Below are positions 1,220 through 16,268 of a DNA stretch of 58,368 nt, piece after piece. Made by a program: the position numbers and the translations under genes. The stretch lies in IMG/VR virus record IMGVR_UViG_3300049259_000040, positions 1 to 58,368 of that record; one strand, given 5' to 3'. The stretch's first letter is position 1. Every line of letters starts with the position of its first letter. The notes under the pieces are model-generated. The model made no database searches and had not been told where the DNA came from. It saw only the letters and a program-made list of their open reading frames with translations. This stretch comes from a virus (lineage: Duplodnaviria; Caudoviricetes).

Positions 1220-3903
1220 CTTTGCGCCAATCGCACGGAGGAAGTCATTGTACTCGGCCGCCGTCATCGCCTGGCGTTGCTCGATCGGCGTGCCATCCAC
1301 TGTTGCTTTCAACGGGTCGTAGCGGGTGTCGATGTACTGGTACGGGATGTTGGCCAAGTTCGTCGTGTCCAGCATTCGCTGCATGGCCTCTTGCTGCTGG
1401 CGCGCGCGCACGGTCGGGTCGTACACGGTGACGCTGCTCCCATACTTCATGAACACCGCCCCGATGGGAAGCTCGGGCTTTGGCGGAACTGGCAGCGGCT
1501 TGGGTTGACGCGCCAGCTTCTCGGCGTGCTTGCGCCTTCGACGACGAGACCACCAAAGCCGAGCGCATCGGTACGCTAGGTATGCGCGATCAACGGTCTC
1601 GTCGCTGATCACGGCTCGTCCCTCAGCGCCAGCTCGACCGCGTTCGCCGATGCCGCGAGAATGCTAGCAAGCTCTTGCTGTCCTGCTGCGCTGCAACGAC
1701 CTGCGGTACGACGCAGGTTTTCGACCTCTACCTCGACGCGCTCGATTTTGGTCTGAAGTTCACGCAGGTCGGGATCGCGTTCGCACTTCTTCCGCAGATA
1801 TTCTCTGCGACTTGCTTTTTTCCATTCATCTGGCGTGATCGACTCGATGGTTTCCACGCTAACCCCAGTCTGCGCGGACAGCATCTCGTACAGCTTTCGA
1901 CGAACTGCAGCGTCTTGCTCCTCTCTGCTGGTCATGAATGCTCCTCGGCGTAGCCCTTGAAGTTGTCGATGAGCGCGGCGCGCTGCGTGACTAGCTCGGC
2001 GTTCTCCATCTCGAGCTCGCGGATGCGCTGGGTCAGAAGTTTGCAATGGACGACGATGGCGCGAATGGCAAACGTGCAGTCTGGGCAATCTGGATAGCCA
2101 TCGTGAGCACGCGAGTACCTCAACGTGCCGGCGTCCATCGCGGCAATCATGTCGTCCCAGGTGTTCACGAGCTTTGTCATCGCGTCCTCTCCACCTCAGG
2201 CGCCAACGCATCGATCAATGCGATCGCTTTGGCGACAATCTTGCGGCTCTCCTGCGCAAACCTCTGTGCGTGTAACTTGCGACACGGAGCGCACAATCCA
2301 GATGCGTGCCCAGTGCGTATGTGCCAGCACGACGCGCACCAGGTCTTCTCAGTCGTCATCGCGTCTTCTCCAGCTCGCGCAGGGCGATTACCGCAGCGTA
2401 CAGCTGCGCATTGAACAGCGTGGCACCTGGCGAGCGAATCGCTGCGCCGGACGGGTCTGCCAGGTACGCATCGCACACGCGGGCCTTCGCTTCGAGCAGA
2501 AGCACGCTCCTCGCTGTTGTCGACAGTTCGTGCAGCCGTTTGTCGACGCAGTAGGTGTCGACAGCTTCGAGCAGCTTGGCGCGCTCGCGGGCAGCGCCAG
2601 TCGGCGAGCGCAGCATCTTGTATTCGTGCACGGCGGCGAAGAGCTTGTTGGCGGCGTCGGTCATTTTACGCCCCACAACCGAACGGCCTTGCGCTCGTCC
2701 GCTCGACCAGCCTGGTACGCCTCGGCGATGAGCTCCGAGACGTAGGCATCGACGGCACTTGCTCGAGGCCCGCGCCCGTGCCCGGTGTGGATGGCGACGA
2801 ATGCCCCGTCATCGACCCATGCGCTGATCAGCTCCCAGAACTTCGCTTTATGCTCTTCGGTCATGGCTCGATCCCCATCTCCAGGTTCTGGCCGTGGCGC
2901 TTGTTGTCGAGCCAGCGCTCTTCGGTCTCTGTAGTGTTGAGCATGGACATCAACTCGCCCCACTCGGACGGGTAACCCTCGGCGCCGAGGCTCCACTGAT
3001 AGACGTTGTCCAGCAGCTCGATTTGTCGCTCAGTCATCGTGTCGTCCCTTCTCGTGTCGTTTCACATTGGCCTGTGAAGCCTCGTCGCGGCATGTCTGCC
3101 CGCACGTAGGGCAGCGCGGATACTCGGCTGGACGCCCACGCGTCGAGCCTTTGGCCAGCGCCTTGCTCACGTGCTGCACCCAGCAGGGCGATGGCAGCCT
3201 ACCCTCACGCTCGGCCCTCACGGCGTCCAGTTCGGTGAGGCGTTTGGCCGTGGCCTGACGCCAGGCCAGCTGTTCCTCGGGCGTCAGCGAGGCGTACGCA
3301 GCCTTGGCAGCGCGCTTGCGGATGTCGTCAGCGCGTGTCAAGACGCGTCACCGTCTGGCTTGTAGCAACGCACTAGTTCGTCGACTGTTGCCGCTCGGCC
3401 GTAGGCTTTCGCAAGCTCGTCCTGCAAGTTGTAGAGCGGCGTCATATTGCTTTCTGGATGGAAGCCCAAGACCACTGACGCCTCGTAGGCGGGCCGGCGG
3501 TAATCCCGCATCCAGTCGTCCTGCGCGCTTAGAATGTCCATCAGGTGCTGCCCGCGCTCATGCATCTCCCGGATGTCTGGCCTGTGCTCTGGGACGCTCT
3601 TTTGCGAGCACTCGCTCATCAGCCACGCAAGCGCTGTCGCTACTCTTCCGGTCATGTCGTCACCTGCTCGATCTCCAGCAGCTCGTCTATTGCCGACAGC
3701 TGTGCACTGATGTCGCCGCGCATCCCGCTGTCACGCAAAACCGACCAGGCCTTGCGCACTTTTAGCAACGTCCACAGCGCGTCTTCGGCCGTAGCGCACG
3801 CGTCCTTCACGTCGGGAATATTGCTGTGCTTTGCGGCTATTCGCAGATGCACGATTGCTTCTTCGAATGCGCTTACCGTGTCGCGTCGTGCTTTGTCGGT
3901 CAT
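1214..3903 (-). other. Leftward operon of ten small translationally coupled hypothetical genes: 3652-3903, 3338-3655, 3030-3341, 2861-3037, 2661-2864, 2356-2664, 2177-2359, 1932-2180, 1609-1935, 1214-1612
   Basis: Successive ATGA/GTGA stop-start overlaps; several CxxC motifs; promoter at 3940-3971. Confidence 0.75.
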
Positions 3904-3939
3904 GGTGTCTTCCCTTTCGTGTCGTTCGCTGTCGAGTCG

Positions 3940-3971
3940 TTTATGCGCTGGGTCGTGACGGGTGTCAACAC
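3940..3971 (-). promoter_or_regulatory. Sigma70-type promoter GTGTTGACA-N17-CATAAA
   Basis: Minus strand TTGACA cccgtcacgacccagcg CATAAA upstream of the ATG at 3903. Confidence 0.65.
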
Positions 3972-4018
3972 GAGTTTTGTGGAAAAGAGGTTGAGTGGTG
4001 TTGTGCTAGGTTACGGCC

Positions 4019-4381
4019 ATGAGCTACTCCGACCTTGACCCAAAGACGCAGCACGACATCGACCTGCTCGATAAGCACATCAACCTGGGCGAGCCGAGCA
4101 CGGGCGCGATGCGTCATGCGTGGCTGCGCGTCCGCTCGCTCGCCGAGAAGTCCGCCGAGGTGCTCGAGGTAGACGATGCCGCCGCGAAGATTGTGGCCGC
4201 TCGCTCTGCCCTCTTCGACCTCTGGTACCTGCGCCGCGACCCGATCGCCGAAGGCTGCGCGCCCGAGCCCGACTGGGATTACGTGTTCCGCCTCTGCATC
4301 CACACCATCAGTCACGCGATTGGCGACGACCAGTACGGCGCCATCCCGGCCTTGCCGCCGACTGCCGATGACGACATGTAA
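4019..4381 (+). CDS. Hypothetical protein, moron-like gene on the opposite strand to its neighbours
   Basis: 120-aa ORF with good codon pattern; TGC-TAGGTT 6 nt before ATG suggests a leaderless extended -10 promoter. Confidence 0.65.
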   Translation: MSYSDLDPKTQHDIDLLDKHINLGEPSTGAMRHAWLRVRSLAEKSAEVLEVDDAAAKIVAARSALFDLWYLRRDPIAEGCAPEPDWDYVFRLCIHTISHAIGDDQYGAIPALPPTADDDM

Positions 4382-4408
4382 CCTTGGCAGTCGTGAAAGC
4401 GTCCGGCC

Positions 4409-4642
4409 TCACGGGGCCAGGGCGAGTGCGAGTGTCTCCAGGTACGTGTCGACCGCTCGTTGAGCTGTCCGTGCACGCCGAGCTTCCAGTGCGATCAGCG
4501 CGCGCTCCGAGCGGTAAGCGCTGCCCATGAACGCACGGAACATCGCGGCTGCGGTGAGTGGGTACGTCTCGCTCCTGGCGATCGATGCCTGCAAGCGTAG
4601 GCACAAGACGCTGCTCTCGATGGCGTGCTCGAGGTGCGTCAT
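4409..4642 (-). CDS. Hypothetical protein (MTHLEHAIESS...)
   Basis: ATGA overlap with 4639-4815. Confidence 0.6.
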   Translation of the reverse strand: MTHLEHAIESSVLCLRLQASIARSETYPLTAAAMFRAFMGSAYRSERALIALEARRARTAQRAVDTYLETLALALAP

Positions 4643-4815
4643 TGCGTCTCCAGCCAGTAGCGAGCGTTGGCGTCGCAGTCCTCGGCAGCAGCCTCGATGC
4701 GATCCGCTTCGAGCGGGTAGCCCTCGCCGCGACGCTTTGCAGCCTCGCTCTTGAGGCGTGCGCTCTCCCGTTGCTCCACACGCGCTAGCAGTTCTCGACC
4801 TTGTTTTGATGTCAT
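4639..4815 (-). CDS. 58-aa hypothetical protein (MTSKQGRELL...RYWLETQ), not in the ORF track
   Basis: ATG 3 nt after GAACGGGGAAAC; directly downstream of the hammerhead ribozyme. Confidence 0.7.
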   Translation of the reverse strand: MTSKQGRELLARVEQRESARLKSEAAKRRGEGYPLEADRIEAAAEDCDANARYWLETQ

Positions 4816-4832
4816 CGTGTTTCCCCGTTCGT

Positions 4833-4883
4833 GGTCTCATCAGTGCAGGCGTCACCTGCAGACGGGCTAGGCCCGTTTCGACC
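4833..4883 (-). ncRNA. Type II hammerhead ribozyme
   Basis: Minus strand GGUC-GAAAC-GGGC-CUA-GCCC-GUC/-UGCAGG-UGACG-CCUGCA-CUGAUGA-GACC: full core (CUGAUGA, GAAA, GUC) and three perfect stems. Confidence 0.92.
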
Positions 4884-4898
4884 TGTCAGGTTGACGAT

Positions 4899-5114
4899 TC
4901 AACCTGTCCAATGCGGACCGTGGTCACGTTCTTCGTCGAGCCAGGGGTCTTTGTTGGCCATGAGATCTTCGATCGCTTTCGCAGATTCGCACACGTCGCG
5001 AATGAACCAGCCGCGATCTCGTCCGTGCCTACCGCTCTGGTCCCAGGGTAGCCACAGTGCGTTGTCGAGCAACGCCTGCTTGTGTAGATTGAAGAGATAT
5101 TCGCGTCGGGTCAT
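4899..5114 (-). CDS. Hypothetical protein (MTRREYLF...)
   Basis: GGAGG RBS; stop codon lies in the 8-bp hairpin 4887-4906 just before the hammerhead. Confidence 0.65.
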   Translation of the reverse strand: MTRREYLFNLHKQALLDNALWLPWDQSGRHGRDRGWFIRDVCESAKAIEDLMANKDPWLDEERDHGPHWTG

Positions 5115-5234
5115 TCGTCCTCCGTCGTGCTGACGACAGATATGTAGCGCCGTGCTTTGCTGACTGCAACATCTTTTCGTCGAAAAGCGTGTTGAGCACA
5201 TTCAACGTGGCTCAATCTCTTTTTGTAGTAATGC

Positions 5235-5265
5235 GTGTTGACATGTCTCCGGCGCGGTGCATAAC
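5235..5265 (+). promoter_or_regulatory. Promoter GTGTTGACA-N16-CATAAC
   Basis: TTGACA at 5238-5243, upstream of the TGT-like gene. Confidence 0.6.
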
Positions 5266-5298
5266 TAGAGCACTCGACGCGAAAGAAGGGTTAGAGAT

Positions 5299-6126
5299 GT
5301 GCAGACGTTCTATCTCGGCGCTCATCGATACAACTGGGCATGCGACGGGCTGACCGACCAGTCGCTGTTCATCTCTGACCGCACGTTGCGTCGTCGTGTG
5401 ACTCCGTTCGCGCCGGCAGTTACGCGATGGGCGCTAGATAGCGGCGGCTTCACCGAGCTCTCGCAGAACCGATTGTGGACGGTTTCGCCTGCCGAGTACG
5501 CGCAACGTGTACGGCGCTACCAGCGCGAGCTTGGACTGATGGACTTCGCGGCGCAGCAAGACTGGATGTGCGAACCCGAGATGCTTGCGCACAATGGCCT
5601 ATCGGTCGTGACCCATCAGTCGTGGACGATCACCAACTACCTTGAGCTCCGCGAGCTCGCGCCGGAGGTGCCGTGGGCACCGACGGTGCAGGGGTGGAGC
5701 CTTGGTGACTACTGGCGCCACGTTGAGGAGTGGTACCGACGAGGTGTTGAGCTGCACGCGCTGCCTGTTGTCTGCGTGGGGTCGGTGTGCCGCCGAGAGA
5801 ATCCGGCTTCGGCCGCTAACATCTTGTCTTCGCTCGCGGCTGATGGACTCTCGCTCCATGCGTTCGGGGTCAAAGCTGAAGTGCTGGCGTTATGCCATGA
5901 GCAGATTCAGAGTTCTGACTCGATGGCCTGGTCAACGCACATGCGAGCCGAGCGTAATGCCGCAAAGAAAGCCGGGTTGCCGTACAAGCACCTCGACCCG
6001 AACAGCCTCACGTGCGGTCTGCAGTGGGTGGATAAGACAATCAATCGCGCCCGCGGCATCGGGCAGGTTGAGACGGATTGCCAAGACGAAACGGGTCAGC
6101 TTGAGATGTTCGAGGCTGCGTGCTGA
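5299..6126 (+). CDS. TGT-superfamily (queuine tRNA-ribosyltransferase-like, DpdA-type) transglycosylase
   Basis: WALDSGGF, DWMCEP, PTVQGW, VGSVCRR, LHAFGVK and SSDSMAWS motifs. Confidence 0.8.
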   Translation: MQTFYLGAHRYNWACDGLTDQSLFISDRTLRRRVTPFAPAVTRWALDSGGFTELSQNRLWTVSPAEYAQRVRRYQRELGLMDFAAQQDWMCEPEMLAHNGLSVVTHQSWTITNYLELRELAPEVPWAPTVQGWSLGDYWRHVEEWYRRGVELHALPVVCVGSVCRRENPASAANILSSLAADGLSLHAFGVKAEVLALCHEQIQSSDSMAWSTHMRAERNAAKKAGLPYKHLDPNSLTCGLQWVDKTINRARGIGQVETDCQDETGQLEMFEAAC

Positions 6127-12031: not shown

Positions 12032-12838
12032 ATGGCCAATGGATTTTCGCTTCACGTCGGGCTCAATAGCGTAGACGCGCGCCACTACGGTGGATGGGAC
12101 GGCGCTCTGTACGGCTGCGAGAACGACGCCAACGACATGGCGACCGTGGCAGCTGATGCAGGCTTCGCGCGCCAAGTCATCCTGCTGACGAAAGACGCGA
12201 CCGCTGCGCACGTGCTCGCGACGCTGCGAAGCTACTGCCAGATTGCGAAGCCTGGGGACACGGTGCTGTTCACCAACAGCTCGCACGGTGGCCAGCTGCC
12301 CGACGAGAACGGCGACGAAGCCGACCACGCCGACGAGACGATTTGCACTTACGACCGGGAGGTCTGTGACGACGAGCTCGCGGCCGTGTGGTCGCTCGCG
12401 AAGCCCGGCGTCCGCATCCTGACTGTCAGCGATAGCTGTCACAGCGGCACAGTCGTGCGGCTGATGCCGACTCCCGGCAACCTGATGCGCGAGTCTCGCG
12501 AGATGCACCCAGCTGTCGCCCGCGCGACGTACGAGCAGAACCGCGACGTGTACGATCCCATCCTGCGTGACCCCGGACTGCGCGAGTACCGCGGCCAGAT
12601 TCAAGCGTATGTGCTTCATTTAGGCGCGTGCGCTGACAATCAGACCAGCTTCGATGGCAGCGTGAACGGTCTGTTCACCGAGAAGCTGCTCGCCGTGCTC
12701 AAGAAAGAGCCCAAGTCGTACGGTGACTTGGTTGCGCGCGTGCGGCGCTTGATGCCGTCCGACCAGACGCCCGAATACCGCTACGCAGGCCCGCGCTGCC
12801 CAGCGTTCGAGGCGAGCAAGCCGTTCAGCATCACATGA
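12032..12838 (+). CDS. Caspase-family (peptidase C14) metacaspase
   Basis: LYGCENDA, SSHGGQ (catalytic His), DETIC.YD, SDSCHSG (catalytic Cys), NGLFT, DQTP. Confidence 0.9.
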   Translation: MANGFSLHVGLNSVDARHYGGWDGALYGCENDANDMATVAADAGFARQVILLTKDATAAHVLATLRSYCQIAKPGDTVLFTNSSHGGQLPDENGDEADHADETICTYDREVCDDELAAVWSLAKPGVRILTVSDSCHSGTVVRLMPTPGNLMRESREMHPAVARATYEQNRDVYDPILRDPGLREYRGQIQAYVLHLGACADNQTSFDGSVNGLFTEKLLAVLKKEPKSYGDLVARVRRLMPSDQTPEYRYAGPRCPAFEASKPFSIT

Positions 12839-15869: not shown

Positions 15870-16268
15870 ATGACTAATGACCAGGTATGGGCACTGTTCG
15901 AGCGTATGCAGGGCGAGATCGCCCGAGAGATTCGAAACCTACTGGGCGAGCCGCCCTATGATCAAAAGCTATTCGACGACGCGCAGCGCACGCGGCGCGT
16001 CGAATCGCTGAAGATTGTAGCGGCTGACCCCAGGAGCGAAGCAGAGCGTCATGAGGCGTGGCGTGAGCAGCATGTCGCGCTTGGCTGGACGCAGGGGGCG
16101 GAGTTCAAGCCGGAGATCAAGCAGCACACCAATCTAGTGCCGTTCGATCAACTTCCCGCGACCACGCAGAGCAAGGTCCGCATCTTCGACATCGTGGCGA
16201 AGTATGCGCAGGCAATCGTCCAAGACGAGGCTGAATACAAGACAGAGTATCCGTCGGAAGGACTTTGA
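15870..16268 (+). CDS. RyR-domain protein
   Basis: HEAW...GWTQG...KQHTNLVPFDQLP signature. Confidence 0.75.
   Translation: MTNDQVWALFERMQGEIAREIRNLLGEPPYDQKLFDDAQRTRRVESLKIVAADPRSEAERHEAWREQHVALGWTQGAEFKPEIKQHTNLVPFDQLPATTQSKVRIFDIVAKYAQAIVQDEAEYKTEYPSEGL

Follow-up and report, generated by a model that had tools for sequence, protein, structure and literature searches.

A hammerhead-like sequence in the spacer between two small genes of a phage raises the question of whether it is a working self-cleaving ribozyme and, if so, what cutting of the transcript would mean for the genes on either side. The locus lies in IMGVR_UViG_3300049259_000040, a complete uncultured dsDNA phage genome with direct terminal repeats and approximately 62% G+C; the term window is used here for this whole stretch of 58,368 bp. 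A major head protein, an integrase, a Sak4-like protein, an HNH endonuclease, and a DnaB-like helicase are encoded by the genome, together with an SU10-type adaptor and a CHAP domain protein. No near DNA relative of the phage was found among 50,697 phage records, and the major head protein gave a single distant match (23.5% identity) among deposited phages. Upstream of the structural genes, the plus strand also encodes a caspase-domain protein (12032-12838; Peptidase_C14, E 1.9e-22) and a RyR-domain protein (15870-16268; E 5.3e-07).

A complete type II hammerhead motif is present on the minus strand at 4883-4833, in the intergenic spacer between two small genes, and it reads as an earlier sequence-only reading had described it, with every core nucleotide, three helices, and a predicted cut at 4861/4860. 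Along that strand, the 5' strand of stem II (GGUC, 4880-4883, C11.1 at 4880) is followed by the core residues G12 A13 A14 (GAA, 4877-4879) and by the stem III hairpin (4862-4876), which has 6 bp from A15.1 (4876) to U16.1 (4862) and the loop CUA. The predicted scissile bond, placed by hammerhead numbering on the alignments, lies between C17 (4861) and N1.1, a U at 4860. The stem I hairpin (4844-4860) comprises 6 bp and a U.G pair with the loop (U)GAC(G), and it is followed by the core CUGAUGA (C3 to A9, 4837-4843) and the 3' strand of stem II (GACC, 4833-4836, G10.1 at 4836), after which an A stands at +1 (4832). The order stem II 5' strand, GAAA, hairpin III, C17, hairpin I, CUGAUGA, stem II 3' strand confirms the type II permutation, in which only stem II is open. 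When the element was aligned to the core columns of RF02276 and of the covariance model R2, which is described below, C3 U4 G5 A6 N7 G8 A9 and G12 A13 A14 were all in place, and the A15.1-U16.1 pair (A4876-U4862) was followed by C17 at 4861, that is, by H17 and not by G. The acceptance rule reported by Perreault et al. allows no mispair adjoining the core in stems I, II, and III (PMC3088659); the core-adjacent pairs of the window element are all standard, namely G10.1 (4836)-C11.1 (4880), U1.1 (4860)-A2.1 (4844), and A15.1-U16.1.

The upstream open reading frame, gene A (minus strand, 4899-5114), encodes 71 aa from an ATG at 5114, or 100 aa from an ATG at 5201, and ends at the TGA at 4901-4899, 15 nt before stem II. 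Codon usage supports it weakly, with a score of +4.4 for the 71-aa form, yet it is the best frame across 4935-5115. A UGACA pentamer lies directly 5' of stem II (minus strand, 4884-4888), and its UGA is out of frame with gene A. The 8-bp hairpin that had been reported over the upstream stop is present on the minus strand at 4906-4887, with the loop AUCG and with the stop codon of gene A in its 5' arm. Downstream, a Shine-Dalgarno-like GGGGA (minus strand, 4822-4826) begins 6 nt after the 3' end of the ribozyme, and its last G (4823) is 7 nt before the ATG of gene B (4815-4813), which starts 17 nt after the ribozyme. The description of the ribozyme as wired onto the ribosome-binding site of a 58-aa gene thus holds, and the arrangement is typical of the family described below. 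Gene B (minus strand, 4639-4815, 58 aa, codon-usage score +17.0) is an ORFan, and its protein matched only itself, from the same 58368-bp contig, in a collection of 5.8 billion proteins. Gene C (minus strand, 4409-4642, 77 aa, codon-usage score +18.6) has a start codon that overlaps the gene B stop (ATGA). No family was found for genes A, B, and C in PHROGs and Pfam.

The plus-strand ORFs between 4400 and 5300 all have negative codon-usage scores and genes A, B, and C have positive ones, so the minus strand is taken as the coding strand at the ribozyme. The ribozyme unit is a short three-ORF leftward block between two plus-strand genes, and its earlier designation as an early operon was not borne out. 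On one side, a DpdA gene (plus strand, 5299-6126; Pfam PF23859, E 4e-54) diverges from the unit across a lower-GC gap. The presence of this homologue suggests 7-deazaguanine modification of the phage DNA, as judged from protein family membership; no Que- or FolE-type families were found among the 64 ORFs, part of the total, that were scanned against Pfam. On the other side, a 120-aa ORF (plus strand, 4019-4381; codon score +47.8, GC3 0.86) converges on the unit. This ORF is strongly coding amid small minus-strand genes and has no Pfam family. No sigma-70-like promoter or intrinsic terminator was found in a scan of 3800-5500.

A relaxed type II descriptor (stems of at least 2, 3, and 3 bp) matched one site only in the window, and gave 3 matches in 200 first-order Markov randomisations of the whole window on both strands. 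Under the R2 model this site reached 70.6 bits (E about 3e-18), and nothing else in the window exceeded 10.7 bits. The descriptor counts and the R2 score together exclude a chance origin for practical purposes. No further hammerhead copies were found in the window, where the next best matches of the models were at or below 12 bits. At gathering thresholds, Rfam returned no ribozyme in the window, Twister included. The sequence-only reading had proposed a search with Rfam hammerhead models as a check, and the outcome was divided: RF02276 (Hammerhead_II) did match the site, with 25.5 bits (E 0.0034 in a 301-nt search and 1.5e-4 for the genome), and this score is below the gathering score of 37, which is the curated cut-off of one model and not a structural feature.

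When the isolated 59 nt were folded, both the MFE and the centroid structure were the hammerhead secondary structure (-23.4 kcal/mol, z -2.46). In a context of 136-146 nt, the MFE fold swaps stem II for pairings with the upstream coding sequence, which engage the CUGAUGA region and GACC and leave stems I and III in place. The centroid for the same context holds neither version of stem II, and the competing pairings are 4-6 nt long. Centroid folds leave the ribosome-binding site unpaired whether the RNA is uncut or cut; a switch that masks this site is therefore not indicated and was rejected for the window copy.

The flanking genes were of little help in finding relatives of the locus. The 58-aa, 71-aa, and DpdA proteins had no relatives in viral contigs, and searches of viral contigs and phage records with the flanking proteins found no related phage sharing the ribozyme locus. 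The DpdA protein search led to two metagenome loci (52% and 46% identity), neither of which has a hammerhead within 3 kb of DpdA. Because the flanking proteins found no related phage, viral contigs were searched with the conserved blocks of the ribozyme separated by variable spacers. The pattern was templated on the window element, with stems I and III, the loops, and the flanks left unspecified, and the core and stem II are consequently invariant by construction in the first set of relatives. At least 123 stretches in viral contigs matched this pattern; by a rough estimate, the number of chance matches expected there is well under one. After removal of duplicates at least 127 copies were available, and 128 listed copies, including that of the window, were used for the counts given below. 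The same pattern matched 25 stretches in 185,579 bacterial and archaeal genomes, taken as one genome per species, and these stretches were distributed over many phyla and located mostly on metagenome-assembled contigs. The viral collection is thus much richer in the GGUC/GACC subfamily than cellular genomes are.

The hallmarks of the subfamily are an open 4-bp stem II (GGUC/GACC), an A on either flank, a short loop I, and no pseudoknot. The A at -1 of stem II is present in 127/128 listed copies and the A at +1 in 110/128, neither of which was imposed by the search. A stem I of 6 bp topped by a U.G pair occurs in 100 of the 128, and its loop is usually 3 nt; among the matches listed, the G-C pair and then the U.G pair at the top of this stem were found in 104/120 and 95/120 aligned copies, respectively. 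Stem III has 5-7 bp in nearly all listed copies (126/128) and is mostly closed by a tetraloop. The window copy has all of these subfamily features, and its 3-nt loop III is the less common form (12/128 listed copies).

Covariation was assessed on two alignments. The first of these, A1, contained 120 of the 128 parsed copies, duplicate ribozyme sequences and copies without 6-nt flanks having been dropped. Across stems I and III of A1, 97.8% of cells pair, compared with 68.9% in column shuffles (0/500 as high), and sliding the partners lowers pairing to 30-46%. Double-change cells number 561 in this alignment versus 188 expected, and changes on both sides occur in 10 of 17 pairs. A model built from A1 gave 128 matches in 78 fetched loci, and 25 of these matches had been missed by the strict pattern. 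Among these extra matches are stem II variants that keep pairing (GGAC/GUCC, GGGC/GCCC, AGUC/GACU, and GACC/GGUC) and cores with N7 = C. Twelve of the 25 extra matches were added, and the window was excluded, to give a second alignment, A2, of 131 sequences; the remaining 13 were set aside for their long insertions or degenerate cores. Pairing in A2 is 98.5%, with both-side changes in 12/16 pairs; in stem II, 3/4 pairs have changed on both sides, each case resting on five or fewer sequences. R2 is the leave-one-out covariance model made from A2, and hence from 131 copies in other viral contigs. The covariation is to be read with the manner of sampling in mind, the relatives having been gathered by motif pattern and not by synteny.

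The low Rfam score of the window copy is shared by the subfamily. The RF02276 gathering score was reached by only 1 of 28 subfamily copies in 20 loci, with three more at 32.8-34.4 bits, and with 27/28 copies below the threshold, the score reflects a limit of the seed of the model and not of the copy. The lack of a pseudoknot is likewise general. Perreault et al. report that in most type II hammerheads loop I forms a pseudoknot of 4 bp or more with the 3' tail, and they note that there are many hammerheads without it; in the type II construct that they mutated, the pseudoknot was critical for fast cleavage (PMC3088659). In the window, the longest complement to loop I is only 3 nt downstream and 5 nt upstream, and no loop I/3'-tail pseudoknot of 4 bp or more was found. 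Loop I complements of at least 5 nt upstream were found in 8/128 listed copies, versus 11.9 ± 3.3 by permutation, and downstream in 7/128, versus 7.3 expected. In view of this lack of enrichment over permuted pairings, the 5-nt match between loop I and the upstream hairpin of the window is unremarkable. A kissing contact between loop I (UGACG) and the CGUCA of that hairpin (4896-4892) was rejected on the same grounds, such matches not being enriched in the subfamily. The tertiary contact may instead come from the A residues on either side of stem II together with the conserved top of stem I; the fit of the window to the subfamily consensus outside the search positions argues for a conserved alternative contact of this kind and for ongoing selection.

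The position of the window ribozyme relative to its ORFs was compared with that of the listed copies. In 95/128 of them, the longest upstream ORF has its stop codon at -1 to +4 nt from stem II, and in 113/128 a Shine-Dalgarno-like motif, scored with a liberal word list, precedes the next start. The distance from ribozyme to start has a median of 19 nt and quartiles of 17 and 27 nt in the 128 listed copies, and is 17 nt in the window. Placement between a stop codon and the next ribosome-binding site is accordingly the norm of the family. The hairpin that the sequence-only reading had described ahead of the ribozyme is by contrast not a family feature and was rejected as belonging to the element: in the window, the 32 nt preceding the ribozyme fold with -11.1 kcal/mol, whereas the 32 nt before 124 listed copies are no more structured than coding controls (mean fold energy -4.65 versus -5.40 and -4.59 kcal/mol).

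Some further features of the listed copies were observed. The UGACA before stem II in the window mimics the stop-codon-plus-CA that abuts the ribozyme in many of them. The sequence AUCAG stands directly after stem II in 20/128 listed copies (e.g. L015, L016, L036, L044, L054, L078, and L079); it is the complement of CUGAU in the core and could form an alternative hairpin that traps the core. Many of these copies have the stem I loops UAUCU or UUACU and are without a clear Shine-Dalgarno motif. On many contigs there are at least three hammerheads, at intervals of 220-400 nt and each bordering one small gene (e.g. L019, L034, L042/L043, L061, and L068/L069); the window has a single copy.

The reading that we consider probable is that the element is a functional type II hammerhead, placed in the spacer between small minus-strand genes, which constitutively cuts a short leftward transcript into separate messages. 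That the minus strand is transcribed, that the RNA is cut in vivo, and that stability or translation is affected at the window site are all inferences from motif and position. The leftward transcript would start in the lower-GC gap between gene A and DpdA, at about 5115-5298. Once RNA had been made past 4833, the three helices would fold and the RNA would cut itself after C17, between 4861 and 4860. The upstream product, carrying gene A, would have the GC-rich stem III hairpin at its 3' end, terminated by a 2',3'-cyclic phosphate, and the downstream product, carrying genes B and C, would have the stem I hairpin as its exact 5' end, with the first nucleotide bearing a 5'-hydroxyl and paired within that hairpin. 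The leader of the downstream product would be approximately 45 nt long, with the ribosome-binding site open. Stem II has 4 bp and is the only helix joining the products, so immediate separation would be expected and religation would not. Terminal hairpins at the 3' end slow 3' exonucleases, and 5'-monophosphate-dependent attack by RNase E is disfavoured on 5'-OH or paired ends. The likely outcome would be two messages with independent decay and translation. This uncoupling idea, which the sequence-only reading had also put forward, is a hypothesis already in print, where it is still called unresolved (PMC3088659; PMC6765202). Counted against the explanation as a whole are the sub-threshold Rfam score, the absent pseudoknot, and the MFE fold in context, as well as the failure to find a promoter or terminator or a syntenic relative and the weak coding support for gene A.

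Three rival readings were considered. An inactive relic or a chance look-alike is favoured by the absence of a loop I pseudoknot, the score below the Rfam threshold, and the single copy in the genome, and in the construct of Perreault et al. disruption of the tertiary contact lowered the cleavage rate by orders of magnitude (PMC3088659). Chance is nevertheless excluded for practical purposes by the descriptor and R2, no core position is mutated, and the subfamily consensus is matched at positions that the search did not specify (the flanking A residues and the top of stem I), which leaves this as the least probable reading. The ribozyme may also be conditional, its cleavage being tuned by translation of gene A or by the competing pairings; the proportion of transcript that is cut, and the expression of genes B and C along with it, would then follow ribosome traffic or physiological state. 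In the 95/128 listed copies in which the upstream stop abuts stem II, a terminating ribosome would, from the general size of the ribosome footprint, cover the 5' strand of that stem, and in the MFE fold for the wider context the CUGAUGA region and GACC are taken up by upstream coding sequence; regulated cleavage has been raised for phage hammerheads by Perreault et al. (PMC3088659). In the window, however, the stop is 15 nt ahead of stem II, so that a ribosome terminating there would hardly touch the ribozyme, the competing 4-6 nt pairings are absent from the centroid, and there is no aptamer-like extra domain at the ribozyme. Genome compaction alone can explain the tight spacing of stop and ribozyme in the family, and conditional cleavage is accordingly judged unlikely.

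A further reading gives the element its main significance as a boundary: a module of stop, cut, and ribosome-binding site would mark a portable cassette boundary that moves with the downstream gene, or its ends would serve as short homology for exchange, with RNA cutting secondary. The stop-like UGACA has been kept before stem II in the window though gene A ends 15 nt earlier, and a stop-like triplet has been kept in 20/33 listed copies whose longest upstream ORF ends elsewhere (background 37% at A|GG sites), a soft figure, since the ORF heuristic misassigns several stops. Gene B is an ORFan, and a contig often has two or three of the listed copies, placed beside single small genes. The conserved blocks, on the other hand, are just 9 and 11 nt long, the strong purifying selection on the catalytic core and on pairing points to an RNA function, and no phage relatives were found in which gain or loss at the locus could be seen. 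A cassette boundary is for these reasons regarded as very improbable, and the constitutive cutting of a leftward transcript is retained as the preferred reading.

By its appearance the window element is a genuine and canonical hammerhead; its class is known, and so is the kind of context in which it lies. A broader proposal, offered tentatively and with more doubt than confidence, is that the subfamily is a distinct type II subclass in which the pseudoknot has been replaced by a contact among the flanking A residues, the 4-bp stem II, and the U.G-closed 3-nt loop I, which lies largely below the Rfam gathering threshold, and which forms a portable stop/cut/ribosome-binding-site cassette with a vestigial UGACA in the window. 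If such a subclass were real, the density of hammerheads in phage genomes would have been underestimated. One simple pattern finds at least 123 viral ribozymes, most of which the Rfam threshold misses (27/28 tested), and annotation pipelines therefore probably under-call hammerheads. For the window itself, one reliable annotation is gained, that of a ribozyme within a block of ORFan genes for which the RNA end can be predicted precisely, at 4861/4860. As a single copy between ORFans, it makes the purpose of intercistronic phage ribozymes no easier to answer than the published examples do. A search of the literature on the function of phage intercistronic hammerheads found no dedicated paper beyond PMC3088659, PMC6765202, and PMC8782182. 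What adds modestly to that literature is the definition of a pseudoknot-free GGUC/GACC subfamily with conserved flanking A residues and its omission by the Rfam threshold, although the supplementary alignments of PMC3088659 (Dataset S1, Figures S4-S5) may already include it.

The arrangement of hammerheads between small phage genes has been known since 2011 (PMC3088659). The core and the permuted topology of the window element are shared with the type II hammerheads of bacteria, prophages, and metagenomes (PMC3088659; RF02276), and the context of small phage genes and the proposed cutting of messages to gene length are likewise as described for type II hammerheads in PMC3088659. The clustered hammerheads of an Agrobacterium prophage cleave in E. 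coli, and their proposed role is the processing of long phage transcripts (PMC3088659). Unlike most of the type II hammerheads described in that paper, the window copy and its subfamily are without a loop I/3'-tail pseudoknot; they also have a fixed 4-bp stem II between A residues. Loop I of the subfamily is just 3-5 nt long, in contrast to the longer stem-loop of the RF02276 consensus. In Desulfovibrio vulgaris, three of three predicted type II hammerheads near phage-like genes were reported to cleave in vivo, both cleavage fragments having been captured by cyPhyRNA-seq (PMC8782182). These reside on a bacterial chromosome and not in a free phage, and they resemble the window element in type and in their hypothetical or phage-like neighbours (PMC8782182).

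A published likeness in geometry is HHphage of the haloviruses HF1 and HF2, which is located 13 nt before the start codon of an early-region gene, compared with 17 nt in the window, and for which a mapped transcript 5' end lies within three nucleotides of the cleavage site (PMC3088659). As described there, HHphage differs in being a core variant, structurally analogous to the variant HHmeta, which needs very high Mg2+, in belonging to an archaeal virus, and in preceding the first gene of a transcript and not lying between two genes (PMC3088659). Twister and other self-cleaving ribozymes have gene associations in common with bacterial hammerheads, with an unrelated fold (PMC6765202). One listed contig has a Twister-P5 match (L027:341-397, plus strand; 35.7 bits versus a gathering score of 37.6) approximately 1.1 kb upstream of a subfamily hammerhead, which fits the known co-occurrence of self-cleaving ribozyme classes.

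The synthetic insulator RiboJ was derived from a plant satellite-RNA hammerhead to which a hairpin was added. It resembles the window element in being a self-cleaving ribozyme directly before a ribosome-binding site, and its cut leaves a defined 5' end (PMC6206723). It is engineered and used in E. coli (PMC6206723); the analogy is one of mechanism, RiboJ not being a relative. With RiboJ, transcript abundance was reported to rise about twofold and protein two- to tenfold (Clifton et al. 2018, PMC6206723), and by analogy with this effect on transcript and protein, the idea that cleavage at 4861/4860 would uncouple genes B and C from gene A is reasonable.
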